A stretch of DNA of 64,000 nucleotides from an uncultured Verrucomicrobiae bacterium (lineage in GTDB: Bacteria; Verrucomicrobiota; Verrucomicrobiia; Limisphaerales; JAFGQR01), in the NCBI GenBank assembly GCA_963788655.1, contig CAWBHS010000062.1, positions 32,001 through 96,000 of the forward strand, written 5' to 3'. The notes beneath the pieces were generated by a model. It ran no database searches, was not told where the DNA came from, and saw only the letters and a list, made by a program, of their open reading frames with translations. The translations under genes were made by a program, and so were the position numbers. How positions within the stretch are numbered: the stretch's first letter is position 1; every line of letters begins with the position of its first letter. This document shows positions 17,774 through 62,070 of this stretch, one piece after another.

Positions 17774-17889
17774 AATGACCAAGGCCCAATGACCAATGAC
17801 CAGTTGATCAACTGACCGCAGTTCGAACTTTGGCTGGTCATTGGGATTTGGGCATTCTCTGGGCCTTGGTCATTGGTCATTGGCCATTC
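17774..17889. repeat. Inverted AATGACC-type heptamer arrays (family C) between convergent genes
   Basis: aatgaccaaggcccaatgaccaatgacc ... ggtcattgggatttgggcattctctgggccttggtcattggtcattggccatt. Confidence 0.85.
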
Positions 17890-24344: not shown

Positions 24345-24414
24345 AATGGCCAAGGCCCAATGACCAAGGCCCAATGACCAAGGCCCAATGACCAAGGCCC
24401 AATGACCAAGGCCC
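24345..24414 (+). repeat. 14-bp tandem repeat x5 (AATGACCAAGGCCC)
   Basis: Five consecutive units immediately after the stop codon; first unit has one mismatch. Confidence 0.95.
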
Positions 24415-24953
24415 AGAGAATGCCCAACTTCCAATGCCCATAGCAGTGGCTGGCCGCCTGCGATCTGGCTGGGTCTTGGTGCTTGGTCCTTCTTTGGGAT
24501 TTATTATGGGCATTGGTCATTTTGTCGGCATCTGTTCATTCGCACGATTCGCCTGCATCCGTTTCTGCCGGCGGGACGCCGGCAGCACGTCAGGCAGCGT
24601 GCTGCCGGCATCCTGCCGGCAGTTTGGAACGGCCCGTTCCCAAAATACCAAACGCCCAACTACCTGCGGCACCTGGCAACTTCGCGCCAGCGTTTGGAGT
24701 GCGTGGAGCTTGCTCCCGCTTTCGTTGAACCAACGCGTCACACGAGGGAAAGCAACGCCAGAAAAGTCTCGAGATACTCTCTCCCGTCGAAAGCGCCGGC
24801 AAGCCGGACGCACTCCAAACGCTGGCGCGACGAATCCAAGCCTTTCCGAAACAGCTTCAATCACCACGTTCCATTGAACCGACCGGCGTACCTCTTCAAA
24901 TTGAGCCTTGGTTCATGGTCCTTCTCTGGAGCTTGGGCTTTGGTCATTGGCCC
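24345..24953. repeat. Composite cluster: family C arrays enclosing a REP-A pair and a REP-B pair
   Basis: REP-A inverted pair 24565-24622; REP-B pair 24683-24722 and 24790-24829; inverted family-C arms at 24455-24520 and 24907-24953. Confidence 0.8.
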
Positions 24954-37218: not shown

Positions 37219-37710
37219 GTCAACCACCTCCGGCAAAGCTGGAGGCTTGAATTGATGAATGGCTCAAAGCCATGGCTGGGAGGCGGCGCTCGTCAGAATC
37301 CAAGTGCCGTGCTGCAACGAAGCGGATGTTCCCCCCTCACCCCAGCCCTCTCCCTTGGGGAGAGGGAGAATCGCCGGCCGCGCGGGAGCGCAAGCCGCCC
37401 GCTGGAACATCTCAACGCCCGGGCGCTGCTGTTCCCTCTCCTTGGGGAGAGGGTCAGGGTGAGGGGAACCAGTGGCTCCATACACCTCCCCTCGTCTCTT
37501 CTTGCAGAACTGTCAAACTTTGCGAGTCCTCCGGCAAAGCCGGAGGTTTCCCCGCGAAAAATGACCATTGACCATTGACCAAGAACCAAAGAATTCCCAA
37601 GAGCCAATGACCAAAGCCTGATTTCGGACGCCAAGAACGCCCAAGCGTTTGGCAATGGGCCTTCGGGCTTGGTTATTCTCTGGTCATTGGGACTTGGCCC
37701 TTGGTCATTC
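37219..37710. repeat. Composite REP cluster (families F, E, E, F) followed by family C heptamer arrays
   Basis: cctccggcaaagc(t/c)ggagg x2; ccctcaccccagccctctcc / ggagagggtcagggtgaggg; atgacc-attgacc arrays 37561-37710. Confidence 0.8.
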
Positions 37711-39105: not shown

Positions 39106-42100
39106 TTATTCGGCACTCGCCGCCGTCACCGCCAGCAAGGCCGGAATGCCGCGCGGTTGTTCGCCCGGCATCATGTCCAGACTGGTGATCGCCACGTCGG
39201 GCCGCGGGTTGTTCCATTGCTTGGCATAGGCGACGGCGGAATAGTCCGTGCCTTCGAATGGTTTGGTCCAGCCGAGTTGCGCGCCGGGGATAGCTTGCGG
39301 TTCTTTCTGCCGGTAATCGTCAATGTCCACCTCGGCATAAATCGGAATATTGGCGGTCTGGCCGTCGGCGTAATGGACCACGTACCGCAGCGTTTCGTAG
39401 CGATTGCCCTTGCGGCGGTCGTTGTTGTTCATCCGGTGCTCCAGTTTCATGGTGTGCAGGAAAAACAAGGCGTCGGCTTTGCGGTTGATGGGAATGCCTT
39501 TGATTTCCTGCGCGGGTTTCGAGGCTTTGTCCGACAGCATCAAAGCGGTCGGCACTGGGGAGGTGGGAAAATCAAAGATTTCGTAGGGCACGCCTGCGAA
39601 GGTTTGCCGGCCGGCGGGCAGGTCTTTGAAGGTGAACCGGCGGTCGCCGAACCAGCCTTTCTCGTCGCGGTATGCGTTGGCTGGTTGCGAAATGTCGATG
39701 GGCGAATAGCGCAGATTGGCGCCGGCAATGATGGTCTTGCCCGCAAACGGTGCTTTCAGATTGCGCAGGATGGTGGCCAGGATGGCGCGTTTTTTAGGAC
39801 CATTGGCCGGGACGGACTCGGTGTCTTTGAACGACACATTGCACAGCACCAGGCCGCCCGGTCCCCGCGGATATTCCATGAGCGCACCGACGTTGAGCAT
39901 CGGTTTGACGCGCTCGTAAAACTCCGGCGACCGGCGGACTTTCAAGTAGATGTTGTCCACGCCCACCACGTCATTCTTGTTCGGCACGCGCTGCCAATCG
40001 GCCAACTCGACGTGCAGCGTCTTGCCGCGGCGCGGCGGATCGATGGCGAAAGTTTGCGGCTCGGTGTTCGGTTTCGTGTTAAAAGTGACCTTGTCCTTCC
40101 CGTCAAAGCTCATTTCGACTTCCGTCACCAAATGATAGAAGCCGTTGCCGATCCAGGTGAATTCGATAAAGTCCTGTGCCTTGGGAAAAACCATGTCCCA
40201 CTGGGGCTTGTCCCCGTGGCCCAGTTCAAAGGAGTAAATGTATTTCCACCCGTCGGCGCTCACCATGCCGTTGACCATGTTGTGAAAATAGTCGCTGGGA
40301 AACTTGGCGAACGGCGCCACTTCGTCGTAGTCCACCACGTAACTGAACGTGTCGTCGGCCACGTACGTGCCGGCCTGCCAGGGAAAGATGCGTTCGCCGG
40401 AATAGAGCGCCACATCGCCGGTGGTCAGGCCGGCCGTCAGGCGATTCTTGACCGGCGGGAAAGTCACCCGTTCGCGGCGGAACGGACGGATGATATGGTC
40501 CCAGCCGACCAGTTTGTTGTAGTCCGCCAGACCCTCAGGGGTTAGGCCGTTGAAGACGATCCAGCCACCGTTCTGGGTGAATTGATTCACTTGATCGAGG
40601 TGCTGGGCGAGCGTTTGCAAGTGGTTCGGGCTGGCGGCGATGACGGCAATCTTCCCAGCGGTCAACGCGGCCAATGGCGTGATGGCCTTGGCAAATTTCA
40701 GTCCGCTGGCTTCGAGAGTGTGAGCGAGTTGCGGGGCGCCTTCCACGCAGGCAGCGACCGGCAGGAACTCCTGCCGGTAGGTTGCGGCGTAGTCGAGCAG
40801 GCCCACGAGGAGATGTTGGGCGACAGGATTGGCCGCGAGTTTTTCGCCGACCAGCAACTGGCTCAGCAGCAGCACGCCCTTGCCGCAGGGCACTTCCGCC
40901 AGGGCGCTGTGGCGTAATTGGTCGTCGCATTGCACCAGGGACTTGGCGCCGCGCGTGGGTTTCATGTAGGCGTCGCGGTACACGGTCGAATCAGGGCCCC
41001 AGGTAAAGAAATCTTTTTGCTGCAACCCGCGCAGGATCGGATGTTCGAGGTCTTCCGCAAACGCCACGCGGCCCTCGTTGCTGGCCGCTTCCATTTCGCA
41101 CGGCAGCGCCTGGTATTTCAAGGGATGCGCTTGTTCGAGGACAATTACCGCGCGGCCCGCCGATGCCCAGGCGGCCAAACGGCTCGAAGTGCTTTCGGTA
41201 GTTGTAAGCGCATCCTTGCCCAGCAGCAGCACCTTGGTGCTATTCGGCAGAGTGTCCAGGCTGTCGAGCTGGGTGAAGGGCTGGTGGATGCTCTTCAGGA
41301 ACGCAAGCGCCAAGCCCTGGGGATCATAGACGGCAAGTGTAGCCGCGTCTCGTGAGAGCGCGGCTGAATTTTGATTCGAGGCGTCAGCCGCATTTTCGAC
41401 GGTGGCTGTTACAATGGACGGAGGCGCAAGCACCGACACGGCTTTGCCATCGCGATACACTTGCTGGCCGTTGACCGATAGCGATAGAACCAGTTCGCCT
41501 TCCGTGCGAGCTTTGACGTTGGGCATGGGCAGCTTGAGTTCGAACTTTTGATTGGTGCCGGGAGCAAGGTGGTATTCCTTGGTATCGCCCGCGAATTCTT
41601 TACCGGCGAAATTCAGCGCCCAAGTAAACGAGATGGGATCAGCCGAATGCGTGTCGTTGAAAATGCCCAACGTGCGCGGGATGCTTTGGCCCGAATCAAA
41701 CGTCCAATCCCATTGCCGGCAAAACACGGCGCGCGGCGCGAAGGAGGCATAATGACTGCCGTCGGTGTCGCTCTGGCCCATCCAAAAATGAAACGCGCCG
41801 AACCCGGCCCAGCGATAGCCTTCGGTCAGGATGCGCGCCATGAGCCCGGCGGCAGGCAGGGAGCCGGCCTTGCCGGTGAACACGCTTTCGCCGCCGAGAT
41901 AGGCCAGTTCCGGATGATGGCCGGCAATGTAGTAATCTTCACCAATGAAACGTGGTCGTTGCTCGTCCCATTGCCAGCGGCCGCGGCCGCCGCCGGTGGG
42001 ATTGGCTTCATAGGCCAGTTCGGGATAGCGGGTGATGTCATGGTCCCAGACATAATGATCGCCTTGCACCGGCATGGCGTTGGACTTGGTGGCACCGCCA

Positions 42101-44195
42101 CCGTCGGTCATGTTTAACCGCGTAGGATCGGTGGCACGGACGGCCTCGGACACGTTGATGACGGCGCGTTCGAACTCGTCCATTTTGCCGCCGTAAAGGT
42201 TGATGCAATTGATGTAGAGCCACTCGTTCTCGATGGACCACAGCATGACCGACGGATGGTTTCGTTCGCCGCGCACTTGAGCCAGCAACTGGTCCTTCCA
42301 ATTCTCCATGAGCTGCATCTTGATGTCCGATCCGTAAAGCCGCTTGAGGTCCGGATCATTCTCGATGGCCATGTAACCGATGCGCTCGCCGTCGAGAATT
42401 CCCGAGCGGCGGCAGACCACGCCGTTTTGGTCGAAGAAGGACAAGGCTTCGTCCGGGGACAGGCTTTTCCAGGAAGTGCCCCAGAACCGCATCACGGTTT
42501 GGTGTTTGGCCCGGTAGAACTTGAGCCAGTCCTCCTTGGTGGGGGCAGTGAAGCAATCGGCCCAACCGTGAAAGGGAATCCCGTTCAGCAAAAAATCTTT
42601 GCCCCGGTTCGACCATTCACGAAAGCCAAACGAGGTTTCCTGCTTGTCCAACTCCTGACCGTCACGAAGCAGCTTGGTGCGCAGGACATACATGAAGGGA
42701 TCATCCGGCCACCACCGGTGCGGATCGGTCCAGTTTTGCGCCAGGCTGAGAGTTTTCGTTTCGCCTGCGGCCAGGGTGAAGTTTTGCGACGCGAACTGCT
42801 TTGCGATGGAGCCATCTGGCGCAAGGACTTCGCAACGGAGTTCGCCTGAGGCAGCGCTGTCGCTGGGATTGAGCAGGGTGAGGTCCGCGCCCAATTGCTG
42901 TTGCGCCACGCTGGGCTTGATGAACACATCGCTTACATAGACCGGTCCCGCCGCGACCAGCTCCGGCGTCACGAGAATGCCCGACTGCGGGTGCGCCCAG
43001 ATCGGGTACGCCAGATCCTGGAAGCCTTCATCAAAAAACCGTTTCGGCAGGTTGAATCGCTTGCGCAGCTTGAGCGGATTGTTTGGGTTGGTGGAATAGC
43101 CATACCAGGCGTCCCGGATGCCCACCCATACTTCGTTGGTGCCCGGCTTCAGTGCCCGGCTGACGTCGATTTGCACGCGGGCGAAGGGATTTTTGTCGAA
43201 CCCACAAATTTGGCCGTTCACAAAGACGGTGGTGTTTAGATTGTTCTGCGGAAAGACGAGGAAGAACGAGCGACCCGCCAACGATGCAGGCACTTCGACG
43301 CGCGTGCGATACCACAGGCGATGCGCAAACACCAAATCGTCGCGGATGTTCTTGTCGCTGGGCACGCGGATAGCCGTCCAACGGGGTGCGACGGGGAAAT
43401 CCTTGATGGGCGCGGCCACCTCGCCGGGCAACTGTTCGTCGTGCCGACAAACCGACCAAAGGCCCTCCAGCTTGATCGCAGTGCGGGCGCCAGGAGCGGA
43501 CGCATCGGGGAGGCGGAAAACTTGTTGCGCGGCCAAGCGGTCCTGCTCGGTTTGATGATCCTGGTCAGGCTTGAAATGCGAGTAAGGATGAAACGGGCCG
43601 TGCGCCAGACATAGCGCGTCCAAGGCAAACAGGATGCGTTGCACCTTGCCTTTATCGTCCTTAGTTTTGGGAAGCCGCAATCTCAGCGTGTGCGGACCGG
43701 CGGCCAGCGTTTGATTGCCCAGTTTCAGCCACGCGACTTCGGTCCAATCACTGAGCTGCATGAGATCGGTCGTCAACTCTTGGGGATCGACGCGCTGCCA
43801 GGCGCCGTTATCCAAACGCCAATCGAAGGGCGAGCGAACCAACTCATAACCAATGCGCGCCCAGGCTTCATAGTCGCCGGGCGCGGTGACTTGGAGGGCG
43901 TAATCAATGAGCACGCCGTCCGCTGGAGCATCGGCTTCGACCTTGCCGGCGTCGATGCTGACCTTCAACCAAGCGCCATCGGAAAGAAAATCCGGATGTC
44001 CAACGCCTTCGGGTTTGGGCGTGAAATTGATGTGCGTTGGCGTTTCACCTTCGAGCCAGATGTAGGCTGGGCCGGGACGGTGGCCGCATTGCTGGCCGGA
44101 GTTGCCAAGAGAATGGGAAGAGACAAAGCGAGGGAAAGGTGGAAGGCGGAAACGCGCTTCGACAGGCTTCGCAAATGCAATGCGTTTTGAATCAT
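39106..44195 (-). CDS. Large multidomain GH2-like glycoside hydrolase (about 1700 aa; signal peptide separated by frameshift near 44070)
   Basis: LWYRTRV, WWPDDPFMY, FGFREW..FLLNG, RNHPSVMLWSIENE; signal peptide in ORF 43965..44195. Confidence 0.82.
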
Positions 44196-44248
44196 AGCTG
44201 TGCGGCATGGTCGCTGTGCGAGGCCAGCGAGTCGAGAAGAAACCGCGC

Positions 44249-44363
44249 CACCGCGTCATCGCGATGACGCGGTGAATGGCAGATGGCAGATGGCAAATGG
44301 TCAACAGTCATTGTTTTGCCATTTGCCATTTGCCATTTGCCATTGCAGCGGCTGCACCGCTGC
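44249..44363. repeat. 26-bp perfect palindrome, inverted ATGGCAR/TTGCCAT heptamer arrays, and a hairpin
   Basis: caccgcgtcatcgcgatgacgcggtg (44249-44274); aatggcagatggcagatggcaaa (44275-44297); ttgccat x4 (44316-44343); gcagcgg-ctgca-ccgctgc (44345-44363). Confidence 0.9.
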
Positions 44364-44888
44364 TCACTCGCCCCGGGCGGCTCGGGCTTCGGAGGAATTA
44401 TAGAGTGGGTGCGTGGCTTTTAAATTGCGCAAGAAATTGAGCCGGAAATCGCGGGCCTTCTGCGCCTTTTCGCGAGCCGATCGGTCCTTCTCCGGCAAGT
44501 GCCGCTGTCCTTCAAAGGGCAGTTTTTCCACCGCGCCAGCCCAACCGGACAGTTGCCGAGCACACGATTCGGCCAGCGCGCGGATCTTTTGCAACGCTGC
44601 GACGTGTCGTTTCAATTTGGGCCGATCCTTGACCACGGCCATCATCGAACGGACTTCGCCCGACGAACCGCGCGCAATGGCAATGAACGAAAGCAGTTCT
44701 TTGGTAGTGGAGCGCTCGAAGCCTTCCGCAACATTATTGGAAATGGATAGCGCCGCCCGATCCAATTGATTGCGGAAGCCCGATGTCAATGGCACGCCCG
44801 GCTCTTCCAGCAGATCGATTACGGTGTTGTAAAGCCGAGCCGCTTCTTGCCACACGGGCAGGTCTTCAAACTGTTGGTACTTGGCCAT
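44364..44888 (-). CDS. Four-helix-bundle protein (23S rRNA IVP / Avd-like family) with C-terminal extension
   Basis: FEDLPVWQ, QLDRAALSISNNVAEGFER, IARGSSGEVRS. Confidence 0.92.
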   Translation of the reverse strand: MAKYQQFEDLPVWQEAARLYNTVIDLLEEPGVPLTSGFRNQLDRAALSISNNVAEGFERSTTKELLSFIAIARGSSGEVRSMMAVVKDRPKLKRHVAALQKIRALAESCARQLSGWAGAVEKLPFEGQRHLPEKDRSAREKAQKARDFRLNFLRNLKATHPLYNSSEARAARGE

Positions 44889-44960
44889 AAAGATAGTCCT
44901 TTCGTTGATTGATAATCTGTTGGTTTGTTCTCCAGTTTTATTCGACTAAATGACTCCTGG

Positions 44961-44997
44961 TGGTCACTTGGCGTTTGCCATCTGCCATCTGCTATTG
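44961..44997. repeat. YTGCCAT heptamer array upstream of the four-helix-bundle gene
   Basis: tggtcac ttggcgt ttgccat ctgccat ctgctat. Confidence 0.85.
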
Positions 44998-45070
44998 GCG
45001 CAAGCCTACCCGTGCGCTTCCGCCAGGACCACTACATCACACCGCCCCACTTCGGCCCGAACCAGCGCGC

Positions 45071-45646
45071 TCAAGAATACGCCGGCTCGTTACCGCGTTT
45101 CCATTTGATGTTGCAGCCGATGCTGGGTTTCTGTTCGGCAGGTGCGGGCTTGCCCGCGAGCACGGCGTCCAGGGCCGCGCGGAGGTCTTTACCGGTAACC
45201 GGGATTCCATTGCCTGGCCGGCTGCCATCCAATTGACCGCGATAGGCTAATCGCCGCTGCCCGTCGAACAGGAAGAAATCCGGCGTGCAGGCGGCGTGAT
45301 AGGCTTTGGCCACTTCCTGGCTTTCGTCATAAAGGTACGGAAAGGAGTAGCCGGCGGCTTTCACTTCTTCGGCCATCTTTTGCGGTCTGTCGTCGGGGTG
45401 GTTGGCGACATCGTTGGAGTTGATCGCCACCATGCCCACGCCGTGCGATTGGTAGTCGCGAGCCAGTTGGGCCAATTCGGACCGGACGTGTTTAACGAAC
45501 GGACAATGATTGCAGATGAACATGACCAGTATGGCCGGCGCATCCTTGAAGTCGGCCAGTGAAATGGTGTTCCCTGCGGTGTCGGGCAGTCGAAAATCCG
45601 GGGCCACCGTGCCCAGCGGCAGCATGGTTGAGGGTGTTTGTGCCAT
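45071..45646 (-). CDS. Thioredoxin-like / AhpC-TSA family protein
   Basis: APDFRLPD, FICNHCPFV, ACTPDFF, SIGCNIKW. Confidence 0.92.
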   Translation of the reverse strand: MAQTPSTMLPLGTVAPDFRLPDTAGNTISLADFKDAPAILVMFICNHCPFVKHVRSELAQLARDYQSHGVGMVAINSNDVANHPDDRPQKMAEEVKAAGYSFPYLYDESQEVAKAYHAACTPDFFLFDGQRRLAYRGQLDGSRPGNGIPVTGKDLRAALDAVLAGKPAPAEQKPSIGCNIKWKRGNEPAYS

Positions 45647-45818
45647 AGTGTCAGCTTTTTTTGGTAGGTATTTTAGGCTCAGTGATGGAGCTTGTTAAGC
45701 AGTTTTCCAGAGCAGTTCAGAGTCTTCTGGTGATGAGGCAAGACCGCTTCGCGTTTTGATTACCACTTCCCGAAGTATGGGGGTATCACTGGGCACCTTG
45801 GCAATAGCCTTCGAAATA

Positions 45819-45943
45819 CGCGAGGCGTCTGGAGTGCGTGGAGCTTGCTCCCGCTTTCGTCTCGCGTATCGCGCTCAAGAATTCGACTGCCTTTCCCCAG
45901 CCGAAAGCGCCGGCAAGCCGGCCGCACTCCAAGCGCTGGCGCG
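45819..45943. repeat. REP-B inverted pair
   Basis: tggagtgcgtggagcttgctcccgcttt ... aaagcgccggcaagccggccgcactccaagcgctggcgcg, near-identical to 24683-24829. Confidence 0.85.
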
Positions 45944-46119
45944 ACTGACTACAAGCCGTTTCAGGATGTCGCTCAGCGCCTGCTCTTGCAGGGGAGGATG
46001 AGCGCGCGCTGAGTGTTTGGAAATGGGAAACCGAATGAGCCATCGTGCTCCGTCTCCCACATTGGCGAGCGCTGTGGACTGGCGTCTTAATCGGTTTGAA
46101 ATCTTCGGAGCGAATCGAC

Positions 46120-47997
46120 CTACACGAATTCCATCTCGTAGCTGTACACGTTACCGGTGTATTTCGTCTGGATCTTCATGTTGCTCTTGGCGAACACGGC
46201 TTGCATGGCCTTGTTTTCCGAGAGCACTTCGGCGGTGAAACCGCGGATGCCGTTGCGCCGCGCGATGCGGATCAATTGTTGCAACAGGAAGGTGCCGATG
46301 CCCTGGTTCTGCCACTTGTCATGTACCACGAACGCCACTTCCGCCATGTTTGTCTTGCGGTCCAGATAGTAGCTGCCGATGGCAATGATGTCTTCCCCGT
46401 GCGCTTCGGGCAGCGTCCCGACCAGCGTCACGTCGTTGCGGTGGTCGATATAAACAAAGTCCTGGATTTGCTTGCGCGGCACCACCTTGGTCGAACTCAT
46501 GAACCGGTAGTAAATCGTTCCCTGCGACAGCTTGTAGAAGAGATCGCGCGCCCGGGCTTCGTCGGTGGGATGCATCGGGCGGAAGTTGATCTGCGTGCCG
46601 TCGTTCAGCAGGTAGGTCGTCCGCAGTTCCTTCGGCCCGACGCTGATCTTACCTTCGATGTCGGCCATGTTGGCGTAGAGATATTTGGCTTCAATCGCTT
46701 CCCGCAGCAGTTGCTCGCGGAACTTGGGATGCGCGATGCAGATCAGTGCCATGGCCCGTTCCTGGATGCTCTTGCCGTGCAGGTAGGCCACGCCGTATTC
46801 GGTGACCACGTAATTGACTCCCGCCCGCGTAGTAACCACGCCGGCCCCCGGGCTTAGCCGGGTGACGATCCGAGAGACGGTTCCGTCCTTGGCCGTCGAA
46901 GGGATGGCGATGATGGCTTTGCCGTCGTGCGCTTTGGCGGCGCCGCGGTTGAAATCCACCTGCCCGCCGACGCCGGAGAAAAACTTGGTGCCCAGCGAAT
47001 CCGCGCACACCTGCCCGGTCAGGTCAATCTCCAGCGCCACATTGATGGCCACCATTTTGTTCTGCTGGCTGATGATGTAGGGATTGTTCACATACTCGGT
47101 CGGGTGGAACGAAAACGCCGGGTTGTCGTCGAGGAAATCATACAGTTTCCGGGTGCCCAGGGCGAAACTGGCCACGACCTTGCCGCGATCAAGTGTTTTG
47201 CGATTGCCGTTCACCACGCCGGATTGTACCAGGTCGATAATCCCGTCGGAGATCATTTCGGTATGGATGCCCAGATCCTTCTTGTCTTTGAGGAATCCGA
47301 GCAGGGACTGCGGAATGCGGCCGATGCCCACTTCGATCGTGGAGCCGTCCTCAATGAGCGAAGCCAGGTTTTCGGCAATCTGCCGCGTCTCTTCGGTCAC
47401 TTCGACCGGCGGCACTTCGTGAATGGGATCTTCGACCGGTACCAGGACGTCCATGTCGTACACATGGATGAACGCATCCCCATGCATGCGCGGCATGTTG
47501 GGATTAACCTGGGCGATGACGAGCGAAGCGTTTTCGGTGGCGCTCTTGACGATGTCCACCGAAACGCCAAAACTGCACAGCCCATTTTTATCGGGCGGGC
47601 TTACCTGGATCAGAGCGGTATCCAAGGGCAATTGGCCGGAATCAAACAACCGGGGAATATCCGACAGATGGATGGGCGTGTAGTCGCCCAGACCTTCCTG
47701 GATGATGTTGCGCACGTTCTCCGCGATGAAGAAGCTGTTGGTGCGAAACACCGAAGCCAATTCCTTGTGGGCGTAGGGCGCTTCGCCGAACGTCAGCAGA
47801 TGCACGATTTCGGTGTCGGGCAGATCGGACGCCCGGCGCGTCAGGGCGCCGACCAGTTGCAGCGGTTCGGCGCAGCCGGTGCCGATGAAAATGCGCTGGC
47901 CGGGCCGAAGTTTGGCTACGGCCTCGTCCGGCGTGGCAATGAGGGATTGGTATTTCTCCTTCCAGGAGGTGTCGAAACTGATCTTCTTGTCGCTCAT
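46120..47997 (-). CDS. Acetyl-CoA hydrolase/4-hydroxybutyrate CoA-transferase fused to C-terminal GNAT domain
   Basis: GIGRIP, GIHTEM, DLTGQVCADS..SGVGGQVDF, VVTEYG; AEVAFVV.DKWQNQGIGT. Confidence 0.9.
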   Translation of the reverse strand: MSDKKISFDTSWKEKYQSLIATPDEAVAKLRPGQRIFIGTGCAEPLQLVGALTRRASDLPDTEIVHLLTFGEAPYAHKELASVFRTNSFFIAENVRNIIQEGLGDYTPIHLSDIPRLFDSGQLPLDTALIQVSPPDKNGLCSFGVSVDIVKSATENASLVIAQVNPNMPRMHGDAFIHVYDMDVLVPVEDPIHEVPPVEVTEETRQIAENLASLIEDGSTIEVGIGRIPQSLLGFLKDKKDLGIHTEMISDGIIDLVQSGVVNGNRKTLDRGKVVASFALGTRKLYDFLDDNPAFSFHPTEYVNNPYIISQQNKMVAINVALEIDLTGQVCADSLGTKFFSGVGGQVDFNRGAAKAHDGKAIIAIPSTAKDGTVSRIVTRLSPGAGVVTTRAGVNYVVTEYGVAYLHGKSIQERAMALICIAHPKFREQLLREAIEAKYLYANMADIEGKISVGPKELRTTYLLNDGTQINFRPMHPTDEARARDLFYKLSQGTIYYRFMSSTKVVPRKQIQDFVYIDHRNDVTLVGTLPEAHGEDIIAIGSYYLDRKTNMAEVAFVVHDKWQNQGIGTFLLQQLIRIARRNGIRGFTAEVLSENKAMQAVFAKSNMKIQTKYTGNVYSYEMEFV

Positions 47998-60818: not shown

Positions 60819-62070
60819 GATGCTGGATGCTGGATGCTGGATGCCAGATACCGAATGCCGGAGCCGCTGCTCTTTCCCTCGCCCCCCTGGGGGAGAGGGT
60901 CAGGGTGAGGGGGGAACTTCAAACCCAACCAAGAATTCAAACGAATGGACAGGTATGGATCTCCCCCCTTGAGGGAGAGAATGCTCCAAAAAGCTATCGC
61001 TTTGGTACCCTGAACCGCCGCAACGTAGGGCGCGTCACTCCGTGCGCGCCGGCCGCTTCCCAGCGGATGGTTCGCTAAATTCGCGGCGCGCTGCAGACTG
61101 CGTGCCCTGCCTCGGCGGTACAGCGGGGAACTTCGCCCTCGAAGAATAGACGCGCCTCGCTGCCCAAAAAGCGGTCACGCAGAGCGCGGCAGCGTTGTGG
61201 AGTGCGGCAGTCCTCTGCCGCTTTCGCCCGCGCAGCCCGTTCCGAAAGCGCCAGAGGGCTGGCGCAGTCCAAAACCTCGCGGCCCTTCGGTCGGTGCCTG
61301 GAAAGGTGCCCGACCTGTCGCGTCGAAGCAACACGCCGGCGCCACGGTAGGGTGCGCCACTCCGTGCGCGCCGACTGGTTCCCAGCGGATGGTTTGCTAA
61401 ATTCGTGGCGCGCCAGGGACTGCGCTCCCCACCTCGACGGTCCATGGAAAGAGAGCACATTAGGCGCCCGCCAGGAACCGCAAGCGCGCACTTGTGCACC
61501 ACCCCCGAAGCGCCTATCCCCAAGCCAGCGGTGACGTTTGCGACGCCTCCAAAGACCAAGGCAGGTTCGATGGCTCTTCCCTCTCCTTGGGGAGAGGGTC
61601 AGGGTGAGGGGAACCGTCGGCGCCAATCGTTCAACGGCTATCGATTTTTCTGAGCCTGTCAAACCCTCAGAGTCCTCCGGCGCAGCCGGTGGTTTCCCTT
61701 CGGCTCCAAAATCGCCCAAAGCGCGGCAACCGAAGCTCAAACTGAACCTTGGGATTTGGGCATTCTCTGGGATTTGGTCATTGGTCATTGGTCATTTGCC
61801 CCGAATTCCCATTCCTCCGGCCGTCGCCGCTTCGTCTTCACGGTCTTCCAGTCCCGGAGGGACGCCCGAAAATAGCCCAGCGTTTGAACGCTGGGCATCC
61901 GAGCCAAAGGAAATCGAGTCCCGAAGGGACGAAAGAAACCGCCGCTCATTGCCCCGCCAATCCAAAACGATTCGGCCGTCCCTCCGGGACCTGAAATCAT
62001 TTCAAACGCTCCCACCCAGCGTTAAGAACAAAACGCTGGGCCAGTTTCGGCTGCCCCGCCAGGGCGCGAA
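60819..62070. repeat. 1.25-kb non-coding stack of at least six repeat families
   Basis: gatgctg heptamers (60819-60860); family E (60875, 61579); GTAG REP doublets (61025-61111, 61347-61433); REP-B-like pair (61185-61275); family F (61669); family C (61750-61798); gtcccggagggac / cccagcgttt..aacgctggg element (61851-62066). Confidence 0.8.

Follow-up and report, generated by a model that had tools for sequence, protein, structure and literature searches.

A four-helix-bundle gene between heptamer arrays in a Verrucomicrobiae genome: a candidate copy of a widespread cassette resembling rRNA intervening sequences

Intervening sequences (IVSs) that carry an open reading frame (ORF) are found in the 23S rRNA of Coxiella burnetii and of Leptospira. 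The Coxiella IVS was characterised by Warrier et al. 2016 (PMC4990558): its ORF belongs to the family PF05635 ('S23p') and is enclosed by terminal inverted repeats. Intervening-sequence protein (IVP) ORFs have also been described in 16S and 23S insertions of Candidate Phyla Radiation bacteria (Tsurumaki et al. 2024). Here, a PF05635 gene of an uncultured Verrucomicrobiae bacterium was analyzed. It is located in a 64,000-nt stretch of DNA, referred to as the window (positions 32001-96000 of contig C62, CAWBHS010000062.1, in the source genome G000; assembly of 8.96 Mb in 115 contigs, 59.6% G+C, 86% complete), where this lone gene for a four-helix-bundle protein lies between inverted arrays of a 7-nt unit. 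Gene and arrays form a discrete cassette that recurs. We consider it somewhat better than an even bet (about 0.55) that the segment of roughly 750 bp is one copy of a widespread, self-contained IVS-like cassette, the arrays being predicted recognition sites of the encoded protein.

Besides the gene family and the enclosing repeats, the Coxiella IVS and the cassettes described here have in common a possible stem of 23-28 bp, the sense insertion into a transcribed host unit, a sporadic distribution, signs of horizontal gain and frequent ORF decay (PMC4990558). The host is different: the target cassette sits in a protein-coding unit, with a redoxin gene and a gene resembling glycoside hydrolase family 2 (GH2) as neighbours. 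No 23S rRNA was found in the window with Rfam or among the assembled sequences of the source genome, and the remark of the earlier note that no rRNA gene lies in or beside the cassette held for the whole window at Rfam gathering thresholds. The arms differ as well, being tandem heptamers specific to the protein clade. Finally, S23p of Coxiella is reported as not made in vivo (PMC4990558), whereas the protein of the target clade is under purifying selection.

The four-helix-bundle fold is shared with Avd, the nucleic-acid-binding scaffold of diversity-generating retroelements. Avd, a relative of the PF05635 family, binds RNA and reverse transcriptase. The family relation has been noted in PMC10053308. 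Unlike Avd, the target has no reverse transcriptase, template repeat or variable repeat next to it, and its protein was not matched by the Avd model NF033474. The source genome contained 13 RVT_1 matches, none of them on C62; the one nearest to any four-helix-bundle gene, of a five-copy type, was 6.5 kb away. The absence of a reverse transcriptase from the cassette, claimed before, was thus extended to the contig, and that of a transposase stood for the cassette ORF and its two neighbours, the only genes checked for it.

Heptamer repeats of cyanobacteria go by the name of short tandemly repeated repetitive (STRR) sequences. Intergenic tandem 7-mers like those of the cassette have been published as TAACTGA (Beggiatoaceae, cyanobacteria, Bacteroidetes) and GGGAATC (Xanthomonas); they often form convergent inverted pairs near the upstream stop codon and change in length in steps of 7 nt (PMC4679880, PMC4692102). 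For GGGAATC arrays, 70-75 convergent pairs were reported in Xanthomonas by Rehm et al. 2015, who state that detailed literature on heptameric repeats does not exist (PMC4692102). S1, Csp, CsrA or a G-quadruplex structure have been proposed as partners of such repeats (PMC4679880, PMC4692102), and MacGregor 2015 proposed an unknown post-transcriptional regulator for TAACTGA; that paper makes no mention of PF05635 family names (PMC4679880). The CAGTTAT-type unit that occurs beside one clade of the genes studied here (L002) gives TAACTGA when complemented and rotated, and Xcc0516, a PF05635 member of solved structure (2GSC), is a Xanthomonas campestris protein. A literature search on the family, heptamers, IVSs and HEPN/Avd, with supplements outside its scope, did not find a link between PF05635 and heptamer arrays. 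As far as searched, an IVS-type PF05635 cassette outside rRNA with clade-specific word arrays is new relative to the literature.

Ten PF05635 matches were obtained in the source genome. An array of period 7 with at least 2.8 copies stood within 400 bp of every one of the ten genes, on one side in five cases and on both sides in the other five. The corresponding proportions for random 320-bp segments of the same genome were 3.5% and 0.07%. Among the five one-sided genes, one was cut by the contig end and the rest had shorter arrays (2.1-2.7 copies) or arms recognised by eye. At least six classes of unit were present around the ten genes:

CAGAGGA unit: C60, two copies
CCAGTGA / GATCACT unit: C18 (two copies) and C97
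GAGGCAG unit: C57
ATGGCAR unit: the target gene, C62
AATGCGG unit: C104:2938
AATGACC unit: C104:17862
TTTGAAA-type unit: C87

Since the units differ between paralogues, the host genome does not impose one unit. The question raised in the earlier note, whether each paralogue has a 7-mer array, was thus answered positively against the random background.

The association was also seen across bacteria. In a metagenome scan for the target clade, in which an array was defined by period 7, at least 2.3 copies and a location within 300 nt, arrays accompanied 73 of 80 loci, compared with 5 of 90 distal control windows from the same loci; they were on both sides in 35 of the 65 loci having enough sequence. 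Genome contigs were scanned with a four-sequence alignment of one clade (L001-L004), and the 80 loci returned are a similarity-chosen sample of that clade, not an unbiased survey of the family. They came from Verrucomicrobiota, Lentisphaerota, Chloroflexota, Bacteroidota, Thermodesulfobacteriota, Acidobacteriota, Actinomycetota, Elusimicrobiota, Planctomycetota and others. For 72 of them, 350 nt were available on both sides; the other eight had shorter flanks and were set aside. An inverted match between the flanks with a score of 14 or more was present in 55/72 loci, and the direct-repeat control on the same flanks reached this score in 11/72. Flanks paired across different loci reached it in 38 of 141 cases, a high share because many loci have one unit in common. 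Almost all arms in this set were (YRGTRAN)n upstream and its complement downstream; the median arm was 28 nt long, equal to four units.

The unit was not always a heptamer. Two named cyanobacterial plasmid loci, chosen from a tblastn list and with genes annotated 'four helix bundle protein', had octamer arrays:

NC_019730.1:8335-10091 (L201): period 8, GAGTGGGA x23 and TCTCCCAC x8.6 at opposite sides of the gene
NZ_CP054697.1:135780-137515 (L202): period 8, AGAGGAGC x4.9 and CTCCTCTG x5.2

Period 8 was also observed in two of the 72 loci and in TTTCAGCG arrays adjoining the gene at C60:4064. The word length of the design is consequently not fixed at 7. Array length had a median of 3.9 units, with counts of 37, 43, 49, 20, 2 and 1 for lengths of 2-3 up to 7-8 units, i.e., climbing to 4-5 units and dropping sharply above 6. 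Such lengths would fit a pentamer in which each subunit takes at most one unit; this is kept as a weak hint, since short arrays are missed by Tandem Repeats Finder (TRF) and arrays of 11-36 units exist beside paralogues in the source genome.

Within the target clade, the unit changed with the distance of the protein from the target:

75-82% identity to target: ATGGCAR
66-76% identity: ATAGCCR
about 60% identity (short forms): ATAGCAR
about 50% identity: ATTTSAA

In a Mantel test of protein identity against unit distance over 73 array-bearing loci, Spearman's coefficient was -0.577, and none of 999 permutations was as low. The proposal that unit and protein co-vary was thereby upheld, with the proviso that kin share unit labels, so this correlation alone shows only co-inheritance. 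Retention of the word goes further. Synonymous divergence (dS) was 0.74 in the closest pair and at least 1.47 or not computable in the other seven, and ATGGCAR-type arrays were retained in L121-L125 despite this synonymous saturation. Neutral DNA would lose a 7-mer at such dS, which argues for selection on the arrays. We infer that something reads the word, and the four-helix-bundle gene, as the only gene travelling and diversifying with the unit, would be the reader. In the protein tree, the GTRA-core unit YRGTRAN was retained by the clusters of Bacteroidota, Chloroflexota and Verrucomicrobiota, and the source-genome paralogues L001 and L003, which have other units, fell on long branches outside the YRGTRAN clade; the tree was a quick IQ-TREE run in which many forks were unresolved.

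Two general properties of the units were tried and rejected. A common 'CRG + N4' core was only weakly indicated (CAG/CGG in 53.4% of 410 units and in 45.7% of letter-shuffled ones) and was driven by few families. Stop or start codons in the unit, as a frame-independent insulator, were looked for by eye in six units and gave no general rule.

The target protein matched PF05635 (23S_rRNA_IVP) with E 6.9e-20 and 71.7 bits (cut-off 33.8) over residues 8-114, and TIGR02436 ('four helix bundle protein') with 66.3 bits (cut-off 24). PF05635 was its only Pfam match; no domain like the Y1 (HUH) transposase was obtained. Residues 122-174 form a clade-specific C-terminal extension that is basic (13 K+R, 7 D+E) and helical. 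The AlphaFold2 model (predicted local distance difference test score, pLDDT, 87.1) has helices at residues 11-28, 36-59, 62-86 and 90-121. The PDB sequence match was 2GSC (Xcc0516), which was also retrieved by Foldseek (E 2.2e-4, template modelling (TM) score 0.85-0.88 by target length) together with 2RLD (BT_0352; TM up to 0.80) and the Avd structures 8UB7, 8UBE and 4DWL (TM about 0.7, normalised by target length). The model suggests an up-down four-helix bundle like those of Xcc0516 and BT_0352; the 2GSC entry holds five chains, A-E. A helix motif GxxRxxxSxxxNxxE is described for the family (PMC3936711). Its R44, S48, N52 and E55 were invariant in the clade alignment, and the leading G position is Q41 in the target. 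Ratios of nonsynonymous to synonymous divergence (dN/dS) between the target and relatives with ATGGCAR or ATAGCCR arms were 0.04-0.13; the protein of this clade is thus under purifying selection. The PADLOC defence models returned 0 families for three of the proteins.

The features of the target locus are as follows, in gene-strand order:

45698-45670, minus strand: promoter-like site ahead of the redoxin gene (promoter scan)
45071..45646, minus strand: AhpC/TSA-redoxin gene, the upstream neighbour (Pfam)
44974..44996, minus strand: upstream (5') arm, gene-strand sequence AATAGCAGATGGCAGATGGCAAA (inverted pair I3 and TRF)
44889..44973, minus strand: 85-nt spacer from the 5' arm to the ATG, richer in A+T than its surroundings (sequence reading)
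44364..44888, minus strand: four-helix-bundle gene, 174 amino acids (aa) (Pfam and NCBIfam matches)
44345..44363, minus strand: small G+C-rich hairpin right behind the stop codon, GCAGCGG...CCGCTGC (minimum-free-energy fold of 44240-44365)
44315..44344, minus strand: middle array, AATGGCA x4.3 on the gene strand, TTTGCCA x4.3 forward (TRF, 100% matches; pair I2)
44275..44300, minus strand: last array, TGCCATC-type on the gene strand, ATGGCAG x3.6 forward at 44276-44300 (pairs I2 and I3; TRF)
44242..44274, minus strand: perfect 26-bp palindrome (44249-44274) plus TTCTTCTC tail (pair I8, 13+13 nt, 100%; terminator scan)
39106..44211, minus strand: large GH2-like glycoside hydrolase gene, 1700 aa, the downstream neighbour (Pfam PF00703, PF22666, PF02837, PF02836)

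The order on the minus strand is thus redoxin gene, cassette, palindromic terminator-like site and GH2-like gene, with 74 nt between the redoxin gene and the upstream arm. All three arrays have period 7, 94-100% matches by TRF, and lie outside ORFs. The 5' arm consists of about 2.4-3 heptamers (CAGATGG/ATGGCAR; TRF array TGCCATC x2.4 at 44976-44992). The middle array has the same sense as this arm and supplies the 5' half of a local hairpin. The last array is complementary both to the middle array (26 nt at 92%, with a 17-18-nt loop) and, at long range and enclosing the gene, to the 5' arm: the arms 44275-44297 and 44974-44996 are 23 nt each and 22/23 (96%) complementary. When the two 200-nt flanks of the gene were compared for inverted matches without gaps, the top score was 20, a value that none of 1500 random 525-bp windows of the source genome reached; one reached 14. 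The description in the earlier note, with a lone gene between inverted heptamer arrays, 23-nt ends matching at 22 positions, a third array able to pair with the left one and a perfect palindrome abutting the left end, was reproduced in all coordinates and counts. The 85-nt spacer is presumably a 5' leader with a ribosome-binding site, and no gene-strand sigma-70-like site was called in it by the promoter scan. The terminator-like site was called on the minus strand from 44273 to 44242; palindrome and TTCTTCTC tail are likely the end of a redoxin/four-helix-bundle transcript. The GH2-like gene starts about 40 nt beyond the palindrome.

The cassette was not fixed in its position. None of 91 relatives of the target gene adjoined a redoxin, GH2-like or acyl-CoA synthetase gene; a 75%-identical copy (L022, genome G030) had ATGGCWR/TTGCCAT arrays on both sides in another context. 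No four-helix-bundle gene was found within 1.5 kb of the redoxin orthologues of ten relatives (69-75% aa identity), and the GH2-like gene was likewise not nearby. With no comparable target junction available for this reason, the junction of a paralogue was used for the empty-site test. The C57 paralogue (L003, G000:C57:325850-326330) is an arm-gene-arm insert of about 480 nt between the stop codon of pyruvate dehydrogenase E1beta and the start codon of E2. In all six relatives having a match, this junction lacked a four-helix-bundle gene: E1beta and E2 abut in five of them (at most 28 nt between matches), including G005 with an 18-nt spacer, and are 145 nt apart in the sixth and most distant. 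The filled and empty spacers were too diverged to align, and insert ends or a target duplication could not be read from them. Fixed synteny and a lack of array enrichment, two of the observations that the earlier note had said would count against the cassette, were both looked for and neither was found. As separate observations on L003, the downstream arm overlaps the 3' end of the ORF, and the ORF appears to be frameshifted close to its 5' end.

Orientation relative to the host genes was recorded for the 80 loci of the L001-L004-clade scan, with the longest stop-free frame taken as the neighbour and rows marked '?' left out. The upstream neighbour was co-stranded in 69/78 cases and the downstream one in 52/65; between co-directional neighbours, 44 cassettes were in sense and 2 in antisense. 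The target, with its gene and both neighbours on the minus strand, follows the sense pattern. Such an orientation fits a promoter-less cassette living on host transcription, as an rRNA IVS must.

The preferred reading can be formulated as follows. The cassette would consist of a PF05635 gene and flanking arrays of a clade-specific unit of 7 nt (8 nt in some clades). The arrays would be cognate sites of the encoded protein, a putative oligomeric nucleic-acid-binding protein of a family that is pentameric in crystals. Protein and arrays would together serve the upkeep or spread of the cassette itself, as an IVS-type selfish module that rides the host transcript, here from the redoxin gene through the cassette to the palindromic terminator. 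Array pairs that stand elsewhere in the genome without a gene would derive from such cassettes or be their trans-acting sites.

Several findings weigh against this reading. A catalytic domain and a transposase (in the cassette ORF and its two neighbours) were not found, nor could a target-site duplication be read from the diverged E1beta-E2 spacers. Co-inheritance by itself would already make unit and protein co-vary, and a factor other than the PF05635 protein could read the arrays. R44, S48, N52 and E55 are identical among subclades with different units, so the motif cannot encode unit specificity; if the protein reads the word, its specificity perhaps resides in the stretches that vary between the subclades, residues 21-37 and 83-104. 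The target unit ATGGCAR is almost private, with a single further site of two tandem units in 8.96 Mb, which makes a regulon role unlikely for the target copy. Three of the ten PF05635 genes look damaged, which fits a selfish element and not a host function.

The segment could alternatively be an IVS-type RNA element, which we regard as unlikely. The arms would then pair around the ORF in the operon transcript, RNase III would cut the stem, and the cut would release or inactivate the cassette RNA and part it from the host message, with the heptamers reflecting the origin of the stem only. In the Coxiella IVS, which encodes a protein of the same family, a 28-bp terminal stem is indeed cut by RNase III (PMC4990558), and the sense bias within operons (44 against 2) and the inverted arms of 55/72 loci are in line with such an element. 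When the 771-nt sense RNA of the target was folded, the 5' arm paired with the last array around the ORF (z -4.37). The 126-nt 3' region alone (44240-44365) folded into three hairpins, with the last array paired to the middle one, at near-equal energies on both strands (-80.6 and -81.5 kcal/mol, z about -9.7). Being one motif in opposite orientations, the arms can pair locally or around the gene. A selected stem in sense RNA should show G.U mismatches far above A.C, and no such excess was present on the sense strand in the 55 loci (54 G.U, 56 A.C) or in 22 loci of the target clade (10 G.U, 13 A.C). Both mismatches of the local hairpin of the target are of the A.C kind when the sense strand is considered, G.U when the antisense strand is, and most arm mismatches fall at the degenerate R/Y position, as if the arrays varied independently. 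Among 59 loci of the target clade, moreover, the flanking arrays were direct in 17 and inverted in 22, and local hairpins were confined to one flank in many (15 upstream, 11 downstream; e.g., L022, L103, L105, L106). If only the stem mattered, its sequence would not be preserved across phyla. It is the occurrence of arrays of the cognate word on the flanks that is conserved, more so than any one long stem; the null result on wobble pairs and the near-parity of direct and inverted arrays lower the plain IVS/RNase III explanation. Of the interpretation in the earlier note, the discrete cassette was supported as one that recurs, and the RNA-regulatory variant, in its stem form, was disfavoured by the same counts. 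With permissive Rfam thresholds, 43900-46200 gave only sub-threshold matches to microRNA precursors, which were rejected as chance matches to the long stem.

Heptamer arrays were abundant in the source genome outside the cassettes. Of arrays with at least 2.8 copies, 420 had period 7, 225 period 6 and 114 period 8; perfect arrays of at least three units numbered 77 for period 7 and 10, 27, 7, 5 and 2 for periods 5, 6, 8, 9 and 10. Most heptamer arrays were gene-less, and 68 same-unit inverted pairs lay within 2.5 kb, with gaps peaking at 50-100 nt. Each of the two largest families had one four-helix-bundle gene bearing its unit: AATGACC (92 arrays), with the gene at C104:17862 (G000:C104:17862-18140), and AAATCCG (45 arrays) with the related AATCCGC (7 arrays), with the gene at C104:2938. 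For the ATCCGGC family (36 arrays), a cognate four-helix-bundle gene was not found in the 86%-complete assembly. A gene with flanking repeats, copies of which also occur gene-less at many intergenic sites, is the arrangement of repetitive extragenic palindromic (REP) sequences with their RAYT genes and of MITEs (miniature transposable elements with inverted repeats) with their parent insertion sequences (IS). The cassettes are alike in that the gene is flanked by an inverted short repeat that is dispersed without it, as in REP/RAYT (REPINs) and MITE/parent IS pairs; the REP/RAYT-like pattern was seen for the AATGACC paralogue, not for the target unit. They differ in that the PF05635 protein has no transposase or nuclease domain and the repeats are tandem 7-nt arrays instead of single palindromes.

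These dispersed families bear on a further explanation, that the protein is a domesticated host regulator, a trans-acting transcriptional or post-transcriptional factor that binds arrays beside many genes and would regulate itself through its own. The single cognate gene of each of the two largest families and the strong purifying selection on the protein would suit such a role, and TAACTGA repeats upstream of start codons have been proposed as the sites of an unknown post-transcriptional regulator (PMC4679880). The near-private unit of the target, the 36 ATCCGGC arrays left without such a gene, and the behaviour of the cassettes, which are gained, lost, damaged and found in changing contexts, make this explanation fainter still than that of the RNA stem.

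That generic slippage-prone or terminator-like heptamer arrays happen to lie on the two sides of the gene is very improbable and already contradicted by the counts (10/10 against 3.5%, 73/80 against 5/90, 0/1500 windows at the arm score of the target). In favour of such a coincidence, heptamer arrays are common (420 against 225 and 114), most of them are gene-less hairpins with 50-100-nt gaps, and a bacterial heptamer excess has been ascribed to polymerase slippage (PMC4692102); against it, the units here are clade-specific and kept beyond saturated dS, and the period of 8 on two cyanobacterial plasmids is unlike a fixed slippage length.

A broader form of the preferred reading is offered tentatively. 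PF05635 proteins might be the missing partner of heptamer and octamer repeats in general, encoded by a transposase-free cassette that spreads through its arrays, with gene-less pairs as its non-autonomous offspring and the rRNA IVS as a special case. It is possible, and no more firmly proposed, that each clade would then be an oligomeric reader of its own word of 7-8 nt, spreading via hairpins or array homology. Two puzzles that have been kept separate for about 30 years, the role of S23p/four-helix-bundle proteins and the excess of tandem heptamers between bacterial genes, are tied together by these data in a manner testable clade by clade, protein X against word X. The rRNA IVS would be one landing place of a wider cassette, others including the pyruvate dehydrogenase and cas operons. 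Should the proteins read short array words, nature would offer in them a collection of small array-binding modules that can be programmed; should the cassette move without the help of any known recombinase, its mobility would follow a new route. In annotation, the design would account for many 'four helix bundle protein' genes and for many false CRISPR-like or simple-repeat calls.

Genes of the family have been encountered in cas loci before: Zhang and Ye 2013 listed 18 of them between cas genes, e.g., cmr3/cmr2 (PMC3936711). A comparable copy in the source genome (L009, G000:C87:43940-45081), of the wider clade of the target, is frameshifted and lies between Cas4 (PF01930) and Cas1 (PF01867); the Cas1 gene is itself split into two ORFs. 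The published genes are read in PMC3936711 as having possible Cas-associated functions, with no mention of flanking repeats. Seemingly the same Cas4/Cas1 flanks were recognised by eye in two other genera (L107 in G004, L108 in G025), Pfam having been run on L009 only; with such counterparts, some insertions would be old. TTTGAAA-type runs in L009 also occur within the 3' part of the cas4-like frame and within the four-helix-bundle ORF, where they encode DLKSQIS-like repeats. Another paralogue (L010, G000:C60:3544-4781) is split by an 84-aa GIY-YIG ORF (PF01541, E 1.1e-11) and is surrounded by nested arrays of the heptamer TCCTCCG/TCCTCTG and the octamer TTTCAGCG.

In the window itself, gene-less AATGACC/TTGGTCA hairpin modules were located just behind stop codons at 17774-17888, 24345-24520, 37562-37581 and 61720-61796, and several of them carry a longer common motif, CCAGAGAATGCCCA. 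Genome-wide, 7 of the 33 AATGACC loci having an exact two-unit match contained both orientations, always in the order AATGACC...GGTCATT. An Acido-Lenti-1 RNA (61850-61895, minus strand, 58 bits, E 1.7e-10), the sole Rfam match of the window at gathering score, adjoins a TTGGTCA array. The stretch 60819-61620 holds a GATGCTG x3.7 array and, behind it, intergenic DNA in which a G-rich motif occurs twice in inverted orientation (...GGGGAGAGGGTCAGGGTGAGGGG...) and another motif, some 70 nt long, twice in direct orientation (...CACTCCGTGCGCGCCG...CCCAGCGGATGGTT.GCTAAATTCG.GGCGCGC...).

Near the cassette, a 76-aa ORF at 43965-44211, whose start (MIQNALHL...LLATPASNAA) resembles a signal peptide, shares the 5' end of the long GH2-like ORF in another frame, and the GH2-like gene may contain a frameshift or an assembly error near its start. 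One DNA sequencing run yielded a single 151-nt contig over 44116-44266 and fragments of redoxin genes of other organisms, with nothing in them on the length, excision or inversion of the arrays. A stretch between the redoxin gene and the next gene (45807-45950) gave no above-threshold match in Rfam. At least five other contigs of the source genome carry repeats of it at 77-90% identity, and a core of about 45 nt from it recurs in many related genomes.

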